Shown: one piece after another, positions 4,509 through 12,080 of the stretch
How positions within the stretch are numbered: the first letter of the stretch is position 1
How the letters are laid out: each line of letters begins with the position of its first letter
Virus record (IMG/VR): IMGVR_UViG_2529292874_000020
DNA: 13,558 nt
Reading direction: 5' to 3' (one strand)
Source of the DNA: a virus
Lineage: Duplodnaviria; Heunggongvirae; Uroviricota; Caudoviricetes
The notes under the pieces: model-generated
Database searches by the model: none
The model's input: the letters and a program-made list of their open reading frames with translations, nothing else
Told to the model about the DNA's origin: nothing
Program-made: the position numbers and the translations under genes

Positions 4509-4566
4509 AAAAAGGGCGGCAGAGCAGTCACGGAGTAAAACTGATACCGCCAAACGTCACCAGAAA
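4509..4566 (-). ncRNA. dicF: DicF small RNA (ftsZ-targeting sRNA of the dicB operon)
   Basis: The reverse complement of 4509-4566 reads TTTCTGGTGACGTTTGGCGGTATCAGTTTTACTCCGTGACTGCTCTGCCGCCCTTTTT, which matches the DicF sequence as I recall it, including the GC-rich 3' stem and U-run. Orientation and position (between the ydfC-like gene and dicB) fit. Confidence 0.7.
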
Positions 4567-6878: not shown

Positions 6879-7106
6879 ATGTTGAAAATTGATGCTATAG
6901 CGTTTTTTGGCAGCAAAACAAAGCTTGCCAATGTCGCAGGAGTTAGGCTGGCAAGCGTTGCTGCATGGGGGGAACTGGTTCCTGAAGGTCGCGCGATGCG
7001 CCTGCAAGAGGCATCCGGCGGGGAACTTCAGTACGACCCCAAAGTTTATGACGAATATCGTAAGGCAAAGCGGGCGGGGCGGTTGAACAATGAAAATCAC
7101 CACTGA
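6879..7106 (+). CDS. dicC: DicC-like Cro-type regulator
   Basis: 75-aa ORF divergent from dicA, with AAGGGG 6 nt before the ATG. MLKIDAIAFFGSKTKLA...GRAMRLQEASGGELQYDPKVY matches my recollection of DicC. Confidence 0.8.
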   Translation: MLKIDAIAFFGSKTKLANVAGVRLASVAAWGELVPEGRAMRLQEASGGELQYDPKVYDEYRKAKRAGRLNNENHH

Positions 7107-7641
7107 ACAGGTTTGTGAGGCTCTGGATACCTGGGTATGCCGACCAGGAATGACACAGGAGCAGGCGACGATATTAATCACGGAAGCATTCTGGGCTCTG
7201 AAAGAACGCCCGAACATCGATGTTCAACGCGTCACGTTTAATGATGGCGAGGTTGATCAACGGGCGCTGGGCGTTAACCGGGTGAAGATATTCGAACGCT
7301 GGAAAGCTATCGACACCAGAGATAAGCGTGACAAATTCACGGCGCTGATTCCGGCAATTATGGAGGCTATCCGGATCAGCGATTTCAGATTGTATTGTGA
7401 AATTACTGACGGAAAAAGCATTACGTACATGATCGCCGGGTTAAACAAAGAATATGGCGATGTGGTGGAGTCCGGGCTGCTTTTTGCGGATCCAGTTGTT
7501 GTGGAACGTGAGACTGACGAGCTTATAGAAAAAGCTATTGCTTTCAAGCACGCGTATCGTCAGCAATACCAATATTACTTTGCAGATAAACAAATGTCTG
7601 CCAGGGGGGCGTATGAGTATCGATGCACTACGATGGGCTAA
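7090..7641 (+). CDS. YdaT-like protein (prophage CII-like/YdaT family, function uncertain)
   Basis: 183-aa ORF whose start overlaps the dicC stop (ATGA-type coupling) and whose end overlaps the replication gene start. Position after the cro-like gene mirrors ydaS-ydaT in Rac. Family assignment is by recollection only. Confidence 0.55.
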   Translation: MKITTEQVCEALDTWVCRPGMTQEQATILITEAFWALKERPNIDVQRVTFNDGEVDQRALGVNRVKIFERWKAIDTRDKRDKFTALIPAIMEAIRISDFRLYCEITDGKSITYMIAGLNKEYGDVVESGLLFADPVVVERETDELIEKAIAFKHAYRQQYQYYFADKQMSARGAYEYRCTTMG

Positions 7642-8650
7642 AAAGGTGAAAACCGGCAGTTCATCCAGTAAGTCAGTATTGACCTGGCTTGCTGATATGT
7701 GCGGTGCCGATTTGTGTGCATACCCGTCTGTATCTGCACTGGCAGAAGTAACGGAACTGAACAAAAAGACTGTGCAGGACAGCTTACGACACCTGATGGA
7801 GATTGGGTTAATTGTTGATACCGGTGAGAGAAAAGGCAGAACAAAGCAAATTGTGGTGTACCGACTTATCGGTGTAGAAGAAAGTGTTGCCGAGCCTGAA
7901 TACACCCAAAAACGGGAGTCTTTAAAGGTGGGTAAAATTGGTGCTGTTAATAAAAACAGTACCGAAAATGGTTATGTTTCAGCACAAAACAGACCCAAAA
8001 ACAGAACTCTTAGCTGCATGGAAAATAACCAAAGACACCCAAATTTTCCATCAAAGACACCCAAAAACGGATCACGGAACCCAAAGGAACCCAAAGATCT
8101 AAACCCCACACATAACGCACGCGAGAGTGCTCCGACCAGTGAGCAGGAAGTTTTGTCGTTACAGGCAGCCCCCCCTGTATTCCTGTATGGCCTGAGCGAA
8201 CCCATCGGAAAATTCCCGATGAGCGATAGCTGGTATCCGTCACGGGATTTTCGACGACGGGCTGCGTTGTGGGGGATGGCTTTGCCGGAGACAGAGTTTA
8301 CACCTGCTGAGCTTGCCGCATTCCGGGATTACTGGATGGCGGAGGGGAAGGTTTTCACGCAGGTTCAGTGGGAGCAGAAATTTGCCCGTCACGTGCAGCA
8401 CGTCAGGGCACAGGTAAAACCAGTCAGCAAGGGGGTAAGCCATGCAGCACCAGGTGGCACCGCATCACGGGCAGTTCAGGAAATTCGGGCAGCACGTGAA
8501 CAGTGGGAACGTGAAAACGGATTTATCAGCAACGGAAACGGCCTGGAAGCTGTGGGAACTTATGGGGGAGGTGTATTCGAACCGCTGGACCCAGAAGAAC
8601 GGGGCTGCGCCGTCGAAGCTCTGGATTGCTCAGATTGGCGCGATGACTGA
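7613..8650 (+). CDS. Replication initiation protein (N-terminal HTH domain, C-terminal DnaT-like domain)
   Basis: Likely start is the ATG at 7613 (MSIDALRWAKK...), preceded by AGGGGGG; the track ORF starts 25 codons earlier. The C-terminal segment WYPSRDFRRRAALWGMALPETEFTPAELAAFRDYWMAEGKVFTQVQWEQKFARHVQ resembles the DnaT C-terminal domain. Internal iteron-like repeats. The 3' end overlaps the next gene by 209 nt. Confidence 0.7.
   Translation: MSIDALRWAKKVKTGSSSSKSVLTWLADMCGADLCAYPSVSALAEVTELNKKTVQDSLRHLMEIGLIVDTGERKGRTKQIVVYRLIGVEESVAEPEYTQKRESLKVGKIGAVNKNSTENGYVSAQNRPKNRTLSCMENNQRHPNFPSKTPKNGSRNPKEPKDLNPTHNARESAPTSEQEVLSLQAAPPVFLYGLSEPIGKFPMSDSWYPSRDFRRRAALWGMALPETEFTPAELAAFRDYWMAEGKVFTQVQWEQKFARHVQHVRAQVKPVSKGVSHAAPGGTASRAVQEIRAAREQWERENGFISNGNGLEAVGTYGGGVFEPLDPEERGCAVEALDCSDWRDD
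7990..8097. repeat. Iteron-like direct repeats (ACCCAAA core) inside the replication initiator gene; candidate prophage origin
   Basis: AAAGACACCCAAA is repeated exactly at 8031-8043 and 8054-8066. GAACCCAAAG occurs in tandem at 8077-8096. A further ACAGACCCAAAAACAG copy sits at 7990-8005. The repeats encode a low-complexity P/K/N-rich linker, as with the lambda ori inside O. Confidence 0.45.
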
Positions 8651-10002: not shown

Positions 10003-10470
10003 GTGATTTTCACCAGTCAACAAAATATCCGTAGCGCGATAACGGTCAAAAATTATGGCGCTGACACTTTTGTGCCACTGGAGATGACTGTACCTAAGTT
10101 CAGGGGAGAAGAACACGTCCGGTGGGATGGTCGGGCCAGATTTAAAGGGCAGGTCATGGCTCCAGCCTGTACGCTGGCAATGGAGGCTGCCTGGCGGGAA
10201 ATTGATATGGGAACCACGCCACTCAGGGATTTACTGCCGGTCCAGAGAATAAATTCCTGTTACGGTTACACCACTGTGATCTTGCAAGTGCAGGAAAGTA
10301 GGTCTACACGGTAACGCGAGTGCGTGTAACTTTTGATGTCATTCCCGTAGAAACACCGGACAAATTTTCGCTGACAGGTCATGCAGAAGGTATAAATCTG
10401 CAGATTATGGACAATTACGGATATCCGGCAAGAGCCGGAAAAAGCATGCCGCCTCTAATTCTCAGTGGAA
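10003..10470 (+). pseudogene. Possible decayed fimbrial-subunit-like gene remnant
   Basis: Two adjacent frames give pilin-like text: RFKGQVMAPACTL...(28 aa)...C, resembling the conserved FKGxVVxxxC Cys pair of major fimbrial subunits, and later GINLQIMDNYGYPARAG, resembling the C-terminal VGVQILD-type strand. There is no signal peptide or intact ORF. Confidence 0.25.
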
Positions 10471-10540
10471 GATGGACTTGATTATACTCATTGCATTGTC
10501 AGAAATAGTTATCCATTAAAGGCTGGCTATTCCAAACAGG

Positions 10541-10568
10541 ATGTTGATTACAAAAATGTAATCAACAT
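10541..10568. promoter_or_regulatory. 28-bp near-perfect palindrome (12-bp arms, AAAA spacer) in the AT-rich leader of the ModA-like gene; candidate operator
   Basis: ATGTTGATTACA-AAAA-TGTAATCAACAT, about 165 bp upstream of the ATG at 10733, followed by a TATAAT hexamer at 10595-10600. Confidence 0.35.
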
Positions 10569-10732
10569 GTAAGGTTTATACTCTTCAATATGCGTATAAT
10601 TTTCCTTATTTTGTTGACTTTAAATAACAAGCTATGCACGAGGTAAAGTCGGATAAGTTTATCTGGATGTAATATATATTATTTGTAGTGTTTATAACTT
10701 TATTTCATGATAACCAATAAAAGGAGTTTTTT

Positions 10733-11491
10733 ATGAGGAACATAATGGCAGGTTTTTTAATATTCCTGTCTTCTGCTGCTTATGCTGATATCAATCTGTA
10801 TGGTCCTGGTGGCCCGCATACAGCCTTGCTTGATGCAGCCAAACTTTATGCCGAAAAAACAGGTATTATAGTGAACGTTCATTACGGCCCACAGAACAAA
10901 TGGAATGAAGATGCCAAAAAAAATGCAGATATCTTGTTTGGCGCATCAGAACAATCTGCTCTGGCTATCATTCGGGACCATAAAGACAGCTTCAGTGAAA
11001 AAGATATTCAGCCTCTTTATCTGCGAAAAAGTATTTTACTGGTAAAGAAAGGTAATCCTAAAAATATCCGGAGTATTGACGACCTGACCAGACCTGGGAT
11101 TGGCGTAATTGTTAATGATGGTGGTGGTACCAGTAATACATCAGGCACTGGCGTCTGGGAAGATATTGCCGGACGTAAAGGGAATATAGAAACTGTCGCC
11201 GCAATCCGAAAAAATATTATTTTATATGCGCCCAATAGCGGAACTGCACGTAAGGCTCTTGAGAATCAGCCTGGAGCAGATGTCTGGATAACCTGGGCTG
11301 ACTGGGCAGCCAGTAATCCAGAAATTGGTGATGTCGTGGAAATAGCGCCAGACTACGTGATATGGCGTGATATGAACATTACAGTACGTCAGGATGCAAA
11401 TGATGAAACCCGTCGATTTGCAGAATGGCTACAAACCGATGAAGCGGCGCCTGCATTCAAAAAATATGGCTGGACCAGGAAAGGCACTTGA
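10733..11491 (+). CDS. Orphan periplasmic substrate-binding protein, ModA/TupA-like (PBP type II fold), with signal peptide
   Basis: 252-aa ORF with AAGGAG RBS. N-terminal signal peptide MRNIMAGFLIFLSSAAYA. The mature protein matches the ModA-type oxyanion-binding layout by eye (ADILFGASEQ vs ModA PADLFISADQ; C-terminal FKKYGW vs ModA FKRYGF). No permease or ATPase genes are adjacent. The leader is AT-rich. Confidence 0.75.
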   Translation: MRNIMAGFLIFLSSAAYADINLYGPGGPHTALLDAAKLYAEKTGIIVNVHYGPQNKWNEDAKKNADILFGASEQSALAIIRDHKDSFSEKDIQPLYLRKSILLVKKGNPKNIRSIDDLTRPGIGVIVNDGGGTSNTSGTGVWEDIAGRKGNIETVAAIRKNIILYAPNSGTARKALENQPGADVWITWADWAASNPEIGDVVEIAPDYVIWRDMNITVRQDANDETRRFAEWLQTDEAAPAFKKYGWTRKGT

Positions 11492-11496
11492 CATCC

Positions 11497-11523
11497 TCGT
11501 CCTTCAGGACGTGGATTCTTTTT
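11497..11523 (+). terminator. Weak hairpin plus T-run after the ModA-like gene
   Basis: CGTCC-ttca-GGACG stem-loop at 11498-11511, followed by a TTCTTTTT tract to 11523. Short stem, so low confidence. Confidence 0.3.
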
Positions 11524-11610
11524 CCGGATGCCGCGCCAGCGGCATGTAGGGGCAGCTCACAAAACGGAAAAAATTGTACGCTAAGCCTCGCCAGGTGAAC
11601 TGAATTCATT

Positions 11611-11634
11611 CCGATATGGGAATTCCCATATCGG
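11611..11634. repeat. Perfect 24-bp palindrome CCGATATGGG-AATT-CCCATATCGG in the hok upstream region
   Basis: Exact inverted repeat read directly from the sequence, embedded in a wider imperfect dyad (GAATTCATT...). Function unknown: mRNA fold-back element or protein-binding site. Confidence 0.5.
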
Positions 11635-11826
11635 GCGAAAACGGTTTGCTGTAACGGCAGAGTTAAGTAGGATTGCTGCGGGTGCTTGAGGCTATCTGCC
11701 TCGGGCATGAACACCAACGGCAGATAGATAAAAGCCCCACCCGACTATAAATCGAAGTGAGGCCCCTATATGCTCGTCACATATAGATTGCCTCTTACGG
11801 ACCGAAAGGTCAAGGAGAAGCAGGCT

Positions 11827-11982
11827 ATGAAGCAGCAAAAGGCGATGTTAATCGCCCTGATCGTCATCTGTTTAATCGTCATAGTGACGGCACTGGTAAC
11901 GAGGAAAGACCTCTGCGAGGTACGAATCCGAACCGGCCAGACGGAGGTCGCTGTCTTCACAGCTTACGAACCTGAGGAGTAA
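11827..11982 (+). CDS. hokD: Hok-family type I toxin, HokD/RelF-like
   Basis: 51-aa ORF MKQQKAMLIALIVICLIVIVTALVTRKDLCEVRIRTGQTEVAVFTAYEPEE with a single transmembrane segment and the conserved Hok C-terminus. AAGGAG RBS 8 nt upstream. The track ORF 11770-11982 is the same frame with a 19-codon upstream extension. Confidence 0.85.
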   Translation: MKQQKAMLIALIVICLIVIVTALVTRKDLCEVRIRTGQTEVAVFTAYEPEE

Positions 11983-12051
11983 GAGACCAGGCGGGGGAGA
12001 AATCCCTCGCCACCTCTGATGTGTCAGGCATCCTCAACGCACCCGCACTTA

Positions 12052-12080
12052 ACCCGCTTCGGCGGGTTTTTGTTTTTATT
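12052..12080 (+). terminator. Rho-independent terminator downstream of hok
   Basis: ACCCGC-TTCG-GCGGGT stem with a UUCG tetraloop at 12052-12067, followed by TTTTTGTTTTTATTTT. Confidence 0.8.

Follow-up and report, generated by a model that had tools for sequence, protein, structure and literature searches.

Gene content of the locus

The DNA analysed here is a stretch of 13,558 nucleotides from a Caudoviricetes virus record (IMGVR_UViG_2529292874_000020), referred to below as the window. In the early region of the PPompW-type lambdoid prophage that it represents lies paa, also named adfO (z2053, in O-island 57 of strain EDL933), the E. coli member of the AcfC/PEB3/Paa family (Table 1). [quoted passage not shown] GenBank records of PPompW phages call the product 'porcine attaching-effacing associated protein Paa/adherence factor AdfO' and start it at Met5 (248 aa), whereas RefSeq starts it at Met1 (252 aa). 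The best O157:H7 prophages match the window as a whole at 98.1% identity and its paa segment at 100%. Genome comparison shows that the cassette DNA is also 100% identical in EDL933 and in hundreds of other STEC genomes, and a paa cassette is carried by 611 of 5,426 complete E. coli genomes. In the literature, adfO (z2053) is the Paa homologue adjoining ckf (z2054) in OI-57, and the two genes always occur together (PMC8565820). The preliminary description had taken the gene for an unknown ModA-like orphan; it is the already known paa/adfO, of the AcfC family, with about 52-53% identity to the solved PEB3 and AcfC. As a virulence marker, this gene is routinely typed in Shiga-toxin-producing, attaching-and-effacing and enterotoxigenic E. 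coli, and its rediscovery therefore brings no new biology.

The gene had further been placed alone between the replication module and hok, with no permease or ATPase as partner. The missing partner is borne out, as the 23-kb O157 locus, like the whole window, contains neither gene type, but the solitary position is not: a DUF1627 gene, a small ORF and a frameshifted PapH-like pseudogene separate replication gene P from paa. The RefSeq annotation of positions 10039-10572 reads 'fimbrial protein' and marks a pseudogene that has a frameshift and an internal stop. Intact fimbrial genes match this remnant at 85-86% identity and papH at about 70%; in its intact form the gene comes third in an operon ordered papB / major subunit / papH-like / usher / chaperone. 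A Pfam search of the pseudogene fragments gave no match, and its identity comes from DNA similarity. On the other side of paa, the hok/sok locus is recognised by Rfam RF01794 (103.9 bits) and by Pfam HOK_GEF. In K-12, relB-relE stand directly upstream of hokD, so the remark that paa occupies the place of relBE in Qin was correct; from 11813 on, 14 nt ahead of the hokD start, the window is homologous to K-12 again.

Table 1. Features in and around the paa cassette (positions are those of the window).
Feature	Position	Strand	Remarks
PapH-like fimbrial minor-subunit remnant	10067..10531	+	left flank of the paa cassette, outside it
paa cassette (leader, CDS and terminator)	10539..11551	+	unit common to plasmid-borne alleles
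Palindrome, 28 bp (12+4+12)	10541..10568		conserved inner core ATTACAAAAATGTAAT; candidate operator; at the left edge of the cassette
TATAAT hexamer, candidate -10 of the paa promoter	10595..10600	+	read from the sequence; invariant in three diverged plasmid alleles
Shine-Dalgarno GGAG	10723..10726	+	6 nt before the ATG at 10733; AAAAGGAGTTT invariant in plasmid alleles
paa/adfO CDS	10733..11491	+	252 aa, ATG start, AcfC family, Pfam SBP_bac_11; signal peptide encoded by 10733-10786
Intrinsic terminator	11493..11525	+	directly after the stop codon; GC-rich stem-loop, then TTCTTTTT
Second hairpin, ATGCCGC-gcca-GCGGCAT	11528..11545	+	right cassette edge; kept in plasmid alleles, homology ending about 6 nt beyond
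Junction stretch, 108 bp	11552..11659		contains a perfect 24-bp palindrome (11611-11634); full length only in genomes with this paa locus
hok/sok locus, complete	11680..11982	+	sok/hok regulatory region 11680-11829; hokD ('ckf' in the literature) 11827-11982; not part of paa

A single-gene cassette shared with plasmids

The gene belongs to a self-contained single-gene unit of 1.0 kb, in which an AT-rich leader of 194 nt and a strong ribosome-binding site precede the coding sequence and an intrinsic terminator closes the unit. Its edges are set by comparison with alleles on IncF plasmids, to which homology (86-89% identity) begins at 10529-10539, so that the left edge falls at the palindrome, and stops at 11551. 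The cassette has a GC content of 0.41 against 0.48 for the window. A leader and terminator of its own, a deviant GC content, occurrence on plasmids and the presence of relBE at the same position of K-12 Qin all agree with the proposal that paa is a prophage moron, with a promoter that is inferred. Transposable-element ends were considered for the borders and rejected, as the palindrome on the left, the two hairpins on the right and the palindrome at 11611-11634 have no sequence in common, and no transposase gene adjoins the chromosomal cassette.

The position of this cargo, a single gene in the prophage early region beside the hok/sok maintenance locus, is what could suggest that Paa protects the lysogen from other phages through receptor masking or periplasmic superinfection exclusion, as had been proposed. 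This role is most improbable: Paa matches no PADLOC defence family, a search of PHROGs places it in a family to which no function is assigned, its diverged alleles are found on plasmids, and its close homologues, in Edwardsiella, Enterobacter, Francisella, Campylobacter and Vibrio, are chromosomal rather than phage-borne and belong to a family with documented colonisation phenotypes.

The leader and its palindrome

The leader was originally given as about 290 bp long and strikingly AT-rich. Its composition is as stated, with a GC content of 0.29 (10500-10799), 0.28 (10482-10732) or 0.26 (10539-10732) against 0.48 for the window. The length must be reduced, since the first 90-130 nt (from 10440 to about 10531 or 10572) are fimbrial pseudogene, and the AT-rich leader that travels with paa measures 194 nt (10539-10732). 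From base composition only, silencing of the leader by H-NS is a reasonable inference.

The 28-bp palindrome reported earlier is confirmed, with two perfect 12-nt arms, ATGTTGATTACA and TGTAATCAACAT, on either side of AAAA. When the window was shuffled with its dinucleotides preserved, perfect arms of at least 12 nt with a loop of at most 10 nt arose in 4 of 300 cases, and shuffling of the leader gave them in 3 of 2000, so that the palindrome counts as non-random. The core of the palindrome is invariant in four contexts, while its outer arms decay in two plasmid alleles. A 15/16 match to this core also sits 127 nt upstream of the Providencia homologue, in an otherwise unrelated leader. The conserved core reads TTACAAAAATGTAAT, followed 5 nt on by TGTAA, and lies about 30-50 nt upstream of TATAAT. 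That hexamer, too, had been noticed before and is present; no acceptable -35 hexamer accompanies it, which is why a consensus promoter scan reports nothing from 10489 to the ATG.

Several readings of the palindrome were tried. It contains TTGATT-N10-AATCAA, which recalls the TTGATT-N6-AATCAA site bound by YdaT of prophage CP-933P (PMC9986795), but the spacing is 4 bp off. No N6 site occurs anywhere in the window, the cro/ydaT junction included, no similarity to the crystallised YdaT could be detected for the YdaT-family protein of the window (no PDB match), and the loose-spacing pattern arises in 12 of 200 shuffles. A YdaT operator was accordingly rejected. A terminator of the upstream fimbrial pseudogene was rejected as well, as the palindrome is AT-rich, lacks a T-run and is not called by a terminator scan. 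To our knowledge, none of the E. coli consensus sites for FNR, TyrR, CpxR, PhoP, RstA or OmpR fits the core in both half-site sequence and spacing. A full-text literature search found no papers on paa regulation.

Predicted export, fold and ligand loop of Paa

The 252-aa open reading frame and its description as a secreted protein are upheld by the sequence. At the N-terminus, MRNIMAGFLIFLSSAAYA|DINLY, a charged n-region is followed by a hydrophobic core and by the cleavage motif AYA; there is no lipobox, because the signal contains no Cys. Paa thus has a signal peptide of the signal-peptidase-I type and is predicted to be exported. The mature start, AYA|DINLYGPGGPH, fits the family pattern D-[IV]-N-L-Y-G-P-G-G-P-H, in which G24-H29 are invariant, and the crystallised mature chain of PEB3 (3fj7_A) begins at the residue aligned with Paa residue 19.

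Matches to PEB3 (E = 1.2e-81) and AcfC (E = 3.5e-81) extend over residues 11-248, the whole mature protein. The AlphaFold model of Paa has a pLDDT of 91.2, with low confidence solely at residues 1-20. It superposes on AcfC with bound D-aspartate (4jb7) with a TM of 0.90 and an rmsd of 1.1 Å, and on PEB3 structures with a TM of 0.87-0.88. In the model, Paa adopts a two-lobed periplasmic binding-protein fold of class II, nearly superposable on both relatives. Among 29 relatives (51-92% identical), 53 alignment columns are invariant, including S134-G140, W142-E143-D144 and N168-S169-G170. The first of these is the loop S134-N-T-S-G-T-G140, invariant across the family and aligned with PEB3 136-142, so that T136 and S137 of Paa correspond to T138 and S139 of PEB3. 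Min et al. are said to have found in 2009 that the T138A/S139A change in PEB3 abolishes ligand binding, and these residues reportedly contact the ligand.

Structure prediction, one of the checks proposed in the preliminary description, therefore puts Paa in the AcfC/PEB3 fold family (TM 0.87-0.90), with ModA and sulfate-binding protein coming next at a TM of about 0.71 and 16-17% identity. The ModA/TupA-type layout seen earlier stands as far as the class II fold goes, and ModA and sulfate-binding proteins are indeed the nearest neighbours outside the family; what does not stand is the assignment to oxyanion binders of the ModA/TupA/WtpA type (18.3 vs 62.5 bits). With ModA/WtpA/TupA and Sbp/CysP, Paa shares the class II fold and Pfam family SBP_bac_11, and these are its next-best structural matches (TM 0.66-0.72). 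It differs from them by an identity of 12-18%, the range found against ModA structures, by an rmsd of 3.5-4.4 Å and by missing their curated models by large margins. The modA equivalog model TIGR01256 gave 18.3 bits against a cutoff of 62.5, other ModA models 11.7-17.7 bits against cutoffs of 253-470, and the Sbp/CysP models TIGR00971, NF008022 and NF008106 gave 19-22.6 bits against cutoffs of 155-308, in a local match confined to residues 93-146. Those proteins are also encoded in transporter operons, and paa is not.

These observations bear on the idea that Paa is the substrate-binding component of a host ABC importer and scavenges a nutrient, for example phosphorylated C3 acids as has been proposed for PEB3, or that it binds sulfate, molybdate or tungstate instead. 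The Pfam family, the structural neighbours and the weak local similarity to sulfate-binding proteins would suit such a role, as would the binding of 3-phosphoglycerate and phosphoenolpyruvate by PEB3 (PMC8835900). It is nevertheless improbable, given the low identity to ModA, the scores against curated models (18 vs 62.5 bits for ModA, 22 vs 155-288 bits for sulfate-binding proteins) and the gene contexts. No permease or ATPase gene adjoins paa here, and no transporter gene is plausibly co-transcribed with the homologue in any of the four relatives inspected (Edwardsiella, Enterobacter, Francisella and Campylobacter). In three of these four no ABC gene adjoins the homologue; in Edwardsiella an ABC cluster lies about 1.9 kb upstream with two genes between, and in Enterobacter a complete ABC system, which has a binding protein of its own, ends 690 nt upstream. 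Orphan status is a trait of the family.

A proposed route from ligand sensing to colonisation

How Paa acts is unsettled in the literature, where it appears either as a direct adhesin or as a periplasmic ligand sensor. Batisson in 2003 and Ho in 2008 reportedly described Paa/AdfO as an adhesin or adherence factor, and the RefSeq name follows the same usage. If Paa is a true surface adhesin, it must reach the outer surface and bind host epithelial cells directly. An adfO mutant does adhere less to HeLa cells, and it also secretes less of several proteins (PMC8565820), which suggests that the effect on adherence is indirect. PEB3 and Paa 'are considered to be adhesins' (PMC5976639), and AcfC binds mucin and sulfated glycans, glycosaminoglycans among them, in ELISA; yet AcfC is periplasmic by fractionation, promotes chemotaxis towards mucin and has no effect on adhesion to Caco-2/HT-29MTX cells (PMC5976639). 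Paa itself has the fold of a soluble periplasmic binding protein, and no anchor, lipobox or autotransporter domain was found in the sequence, by Pfam or in the model. A surface adhesin is therefore rather unlikely.

The explanation that accounts best for the locus as a whole, and is very probably right, combines the identity of the gene as paa/adfO, its carriage as a single-gene prophage unit and a periplasmic ligand-sensing mechanism. Paa would be exported by Sec to the periplasm, where its two lobes would close round a small anionic ligand, for instance an acidic amino acid or a compound that is phosphorylated or sulfated. Reported ligands vary among the three members of the family that have been studied, being phosphorylated C3 acids or citrate, D-aspartate, and sulfated glycans respectively. 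The ligand signal would then pass to a membrane partner encoded by the host, either a chemoreceptor or a transporter, and promote colonisation, so that the adherence defect of the mutant would be at least partly indirect. At the level of expression, the palindrome core upstream of TATAAT is probably a transcription factor binding site, and paa is induced in bovine rumen and rectum contents (PMC8524897). The literature treats paa/adfO as a virulence factor of the lysogenic-conversion type (PMC8565820), in keeping with one of the roles first put forward for the gene.

A bolder extension can be offered tentatively. The palindrome core may be an operator through which a host transcription factor turns paa on in the gut; separately, Paa may work in the periplasm as a co-receptor feeding into a chemoreceptor or a secretion pathway of the host, and not as an adhesin. 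If the operator is real, the Providencia copy of the motif would show these orphan binding proteins, as a family, to be accompanied by a conserved regulatory input.

Comparison with known systems

AcfC of V. cholerae (4jb7) is 52% identical to Paa, has the same length and also a signal peptide, shares the invariant ligand-loop residues, and is likewise a colonisation factor of an enteric pathogen encoded on mobile DNA. The genes are organised differently: in the Vibrio pathogenicity island, acfC shares a transcript with the chemoreceptor-like gene acfB and is controlled by ToxR/ToxT, whereas paa forms a unit by itself in a lambdoid prophage, and no chemoreceptor gene lies nearby. AcfC is also without an adhesion phenotype (PMC5976639). 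PEB3, a major antigenic peptide and glycoprotein adhesin of C. jejuni (2hxw, 3fj7, 3fjg, 3fir), has 52-53% identity and, like Paa, is encoded by an orphan chromosomal gene. The two differ at K135 of PEB3, which is Thr133 in Paa, and at the N-glycosylation sequon DFNVS, which is replaced by DSFSE.

The closest comparison is with Paa/AdfO of EDL933, which is the same gene with the same hokD ('ckf') neighbour and the same PPompW-type prophage context, and from which the present locus shows no difference of substance. New in detail are the sharing of the 1.0-kb unit with IncF plasmid alleles, its left edge at the palindrome, the PapH-like pseudogene that flanks it on the left, and the return of a 15-nt core of the palindrome upstream of the Providencia homologue. 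The present analysis fixes where the cassette begins and ends, which leader motif is conserved and which ligand loop is invariant, all of which refine this known system and are no discovery. These three features give concrete handles on what Paa binds, on what turns paa on, and on how an orphan binding-protein fold promotes adherence and colonisation.

Identity of the gene

The orphan binding-protein gene of the preliminary description is the well-known paa/adfO of the AcfC family. Many STEC chromosomes carry loci annotated "paa: AcfC family adhesin Paa" that match the paa segment at 100% identity, and the PPompW phage records label the gene [quoted passage not shown]. In OI-57, according to a review of O157 O-islands, adfO (z2053) is a homologue of Paa and is always accompanied by the adjoining hok-family gene ckf (z2054); the same review reports that an adfO mutant shows lower HeLa adherence and lower secretion of several proteins (PMC8565820). 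These exact matches, the PPompW annotation and the review together identify a known, named virulence-associated gene. The 1.0-kb paa cassette is present in 611 of the 5,426 complete E. coli genomes, and is at least 99% identical in 552 records (100% in EDL933). The finding is thus already known, leaving as a small novel residue a defined cassette and a candidate conserved leader motif. The earlier observation is confirmed and its interpretation was partly right: a secreted protein of this fold class, encoded as an orphan and carried by the prophage as lysogenic-conversion cargo, was recognized, but the paa/adfO identity and the AcfC family were missed.

Prophage setting

The window covers the left-hand 13.5 kb of a lambdoid prophage that is integrated at ompW and named PPompW in GenBank records of the same element. 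Its genes run in the order integrase, excisionase, exonuclease, dicB, DicF RNA, ydfC, dicA/dicC-like repressors, a YdaT-family gene, replication genes, a DUF1627 gene, paa, hokD, rem and ydfU. The best complete-genome matches are about 98% identical over the full window, and 100% over the paa segment (10300-11700). An IS1203 insertion interrupts a replication gene in O157:H7 PV15-279, and is absent from the window (near 8372). In K-12 Qin, relB-relE lie immediately 5' of hokD, so that paa does occupy the relBE position, as the preliminary description stated. Homology to K-12 picks up again at 11813, 14 nt 5' of hokD, with none before that point. The weak isrK-like match beyond hokD is probably due to chance, or else a distant relative of the prophage sRNA.

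Features of the paa region and its prophage neighbours
Feature	Position	Strand	Details
DicF small RNA	4514-4565	-	Rfam RF00039, 76.7 bits; flanked by the ydfC and dicB homologues, the arrangement of K-12 Qin
Fimbrial pseudogene	10039-10572		Frameshifted; RefSeq annotation; directly upstream of paa
paa leader	10539-10732		194 nt
Leader palindrome	10541-10568		28 bp; two perfect 12-nt arms, AAAA between
TATAAT hexamer	10595-10600		
paa ORF	10733-11491	+	252 aa
Intrinsic terminator	11493-11516 (stem)		After the paa stop codon; stem followed by TTCTTTTT
Second hairpin	11528-11545		ATGCCGC-gcca-GCGGCAT; right part of the paa cassette
Second palindrome	11611-11634		Perfect, 24 bp, CCGATATGGGAATTCCCATATCGG; inside a 108-bp stretch (11552-11659) between the paa cassette and hok/sok
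hok/sok locus	11680-11982		Complete; Rfam sok RF01794, 103.9 bits; hokD 11827-11982
isrK-like match	11991-12072	+	Weak; 24.9 bits vs gathering score 50, E = 0.0085; just 3' of hokD

The gene had been said to sit alone. This holds for transporters, as neither the window nor the 23-kb O157 locus contains a permease or ATPase gene, but a frameshifted fimbrial pseudogene lies directly upstream. Its 10067-10531 section shares 85% identity with an intact gene for a PapH-like minor subunit; elsewhere in E. coli, such intact copies occupy third place in pap-type chaperone-usher operons. With this PapH-like remnant stranded beside paa, the cargo region is a mosaic of two adhesion-related fragments.

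The paa cassette and its leader

The AT-rich leader, the palindrome and the TATAAT hexamer are all present, with GC falling to 0.26-0.29 across about 10480-10800 (0.48 window-wide). However, the first third of what was taken as a leader of about 290 bp is fimbrial pseudogene. RefSeq starts Paa at Met1 (10733; 252 aa), while the GenBank PPompW records start it at Met5 (10745; 248 aa), as does PHROG 11834. We favour Met1, judging from the GGAG 6 nt 5' of its ATG and the conserved MR/MK start in homologues.

IncF plasmids, many of pig origin, carry diverged paa alleles (86-89% DNA identity), one of them beside the STa enterotoxin gene and copies of IS1. Homology to the window starts at 10529-10539 and stops at 11551 in each of the three plasmid types examined. 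These shared limits define a mobile unit composed of leader, gene, terminator and second hairpin. The stretch that follows (11552-11659) is found full-length solely in the roughly 577 genomes with this paa locus, and other hok/sok loci are homologous to the window only from about 11660.

The left edge of the cassette lies at the leader palindrome. A repeat of matching quality arose in 4 of 300 window shuffles and 3 of 2000 leader shuffles. The complete 12-nt arms are found in the window and in plasmid pSTEC388_3. Two other plasmids differ at the outer four positions of the left arm, which leaves only the inner ATTACAAAAATGTAAT invariant, and the 28-bp extension is not itself conserved. The E. 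albertii homologue (87% protein identity) and the Citrobacter homologue have leaders unrelated to this one. In Providencia alcalifaciens (67% identity), CTTACAAAAATGTAAT lies 127 nt upstream of the homologue with TGTAA 5 nt further, in an otherwise unrelated leader. The element TTACAAAAATGTAAT-N5-TGTAA is thus common to the E. coli (10547-10574) and Providencia leaders. On this comparison, the palindrome core is likely a protein-binding site, and the shared element is a candidate conserved operator.

A YdaT operator was considered and rejected. The palindrome contains the window's sole TTGATT...AATCAA pair (10544-10565), but with N10 spacing, whereas the CP-933P YdaT operator is TTGATT-N6-AATCAA (PMC9986795), a site found nowhere in the window. 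The "toxin YdaT family protein" encoded at 7090-7641 (+) shows no detectable similarity to the CP-933P YdaT of known structure. The resemblance is treated as coincidence.

Family and fold

Paa belongs to Pfam SBP_bac_11 (118 bits). Among solved structures, the matches that span the entire mature protein are C. jejuni PEB3 (E = 1.2e-81) and V. cholerae AcfC (E = 3.5e-81); sulfate-binding proteins give local matches only (E about 1e-4). An AlphaFold model built from an alignment of 29 relatives has a pLDDT of 91.2, low over the signal peptide only. Foldseek places first AcfC 4jb7, a D-aspartate complex (TM 0.90, rmsd 1.1 Å), then PEB3 (TM 0.87-0.88) and, past a clear gap, ModA proteins (TM 0.66-0.72, 12-18% identity) and sulfate-binding proteins. 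The proposed ModA-type layout is therefore correct as a fold class, but Paa is not a ModA, scoring 18.3 bits where the TIGR01256 cutoff is 62.5, and it also falls below the cutoffs of sulfate-binding family models.

The family is compact, being found in Enterobacterales, Aeromonas, Vibrio, Francisella, Helicobacter, Campylobacter and some gut metagenome bins. The Edwardsiella, Francisella and Campylobacter relatives stand alone, with no adjoining ABC gene; the Edwardsiella homologue is preceded, about 1.9 kb 5' and with two genes between, by the end of an unrelated ABC cluster. In Enterobacter, the ABC system that ends 690 nt 5' is complete and has a binding protein of its own. The absence of a co-encoded transporter is a trait of the AcfC/PEB3/Paa family, not a peculiarity of this prophage. 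Oxyanion scavenging by Paa through a host ABC importer is much less likely than the sensor and adhesin readings below, since ModA and sulfate-binding models miss it and none of the four relatives inspected has a plausibly co-transcribed transporter gene.

How Paa may work

The cassette is a single-gene unit whose product has an export signal, the AcfC/PEB3 fold and invariant pocket-loop residues. We propose that Paa would sense or bind a small anionic ligand in the periplasm and act via a host-encoded membrane partner, and that the adherence phenotype may be indirect, at least in part. Its chief competitor is the reading of Paa as a direct adhesin, taken from the original papers; a role as a phage exclusion factor is much less likely. 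Expression of EDL933 paa is induced in bovine rumen and rectum contents (PMC8524897).

Fractionation places AcfC in the periplasm; the protein binds heparin, chondroitin sulfate and mucin in ELISA, promotes chemotaxis to mucin and shapes intestinal distribution, and leaves adhesion to Caco-2 and HT-29MTX cells unaffected (PMC5976639). PEB3 ligands are 3-phosphoglycerate and phosphoenolpyruvate (PMC8835900). The family alignment has 53 invariant columns, among them G24-P-G-G-P-H29, S134-N-T-S-G-T-G140, W142-E-D144, N168-S-G170 and W185/T187/W188/D190/W191. Paa T136 and S137 are the aligned counterparts of PEB3 T138 and S139, and Min et al. in 2009 reportedly saw ligand binding lost in the PEB3 T138A/S139A double mutant.
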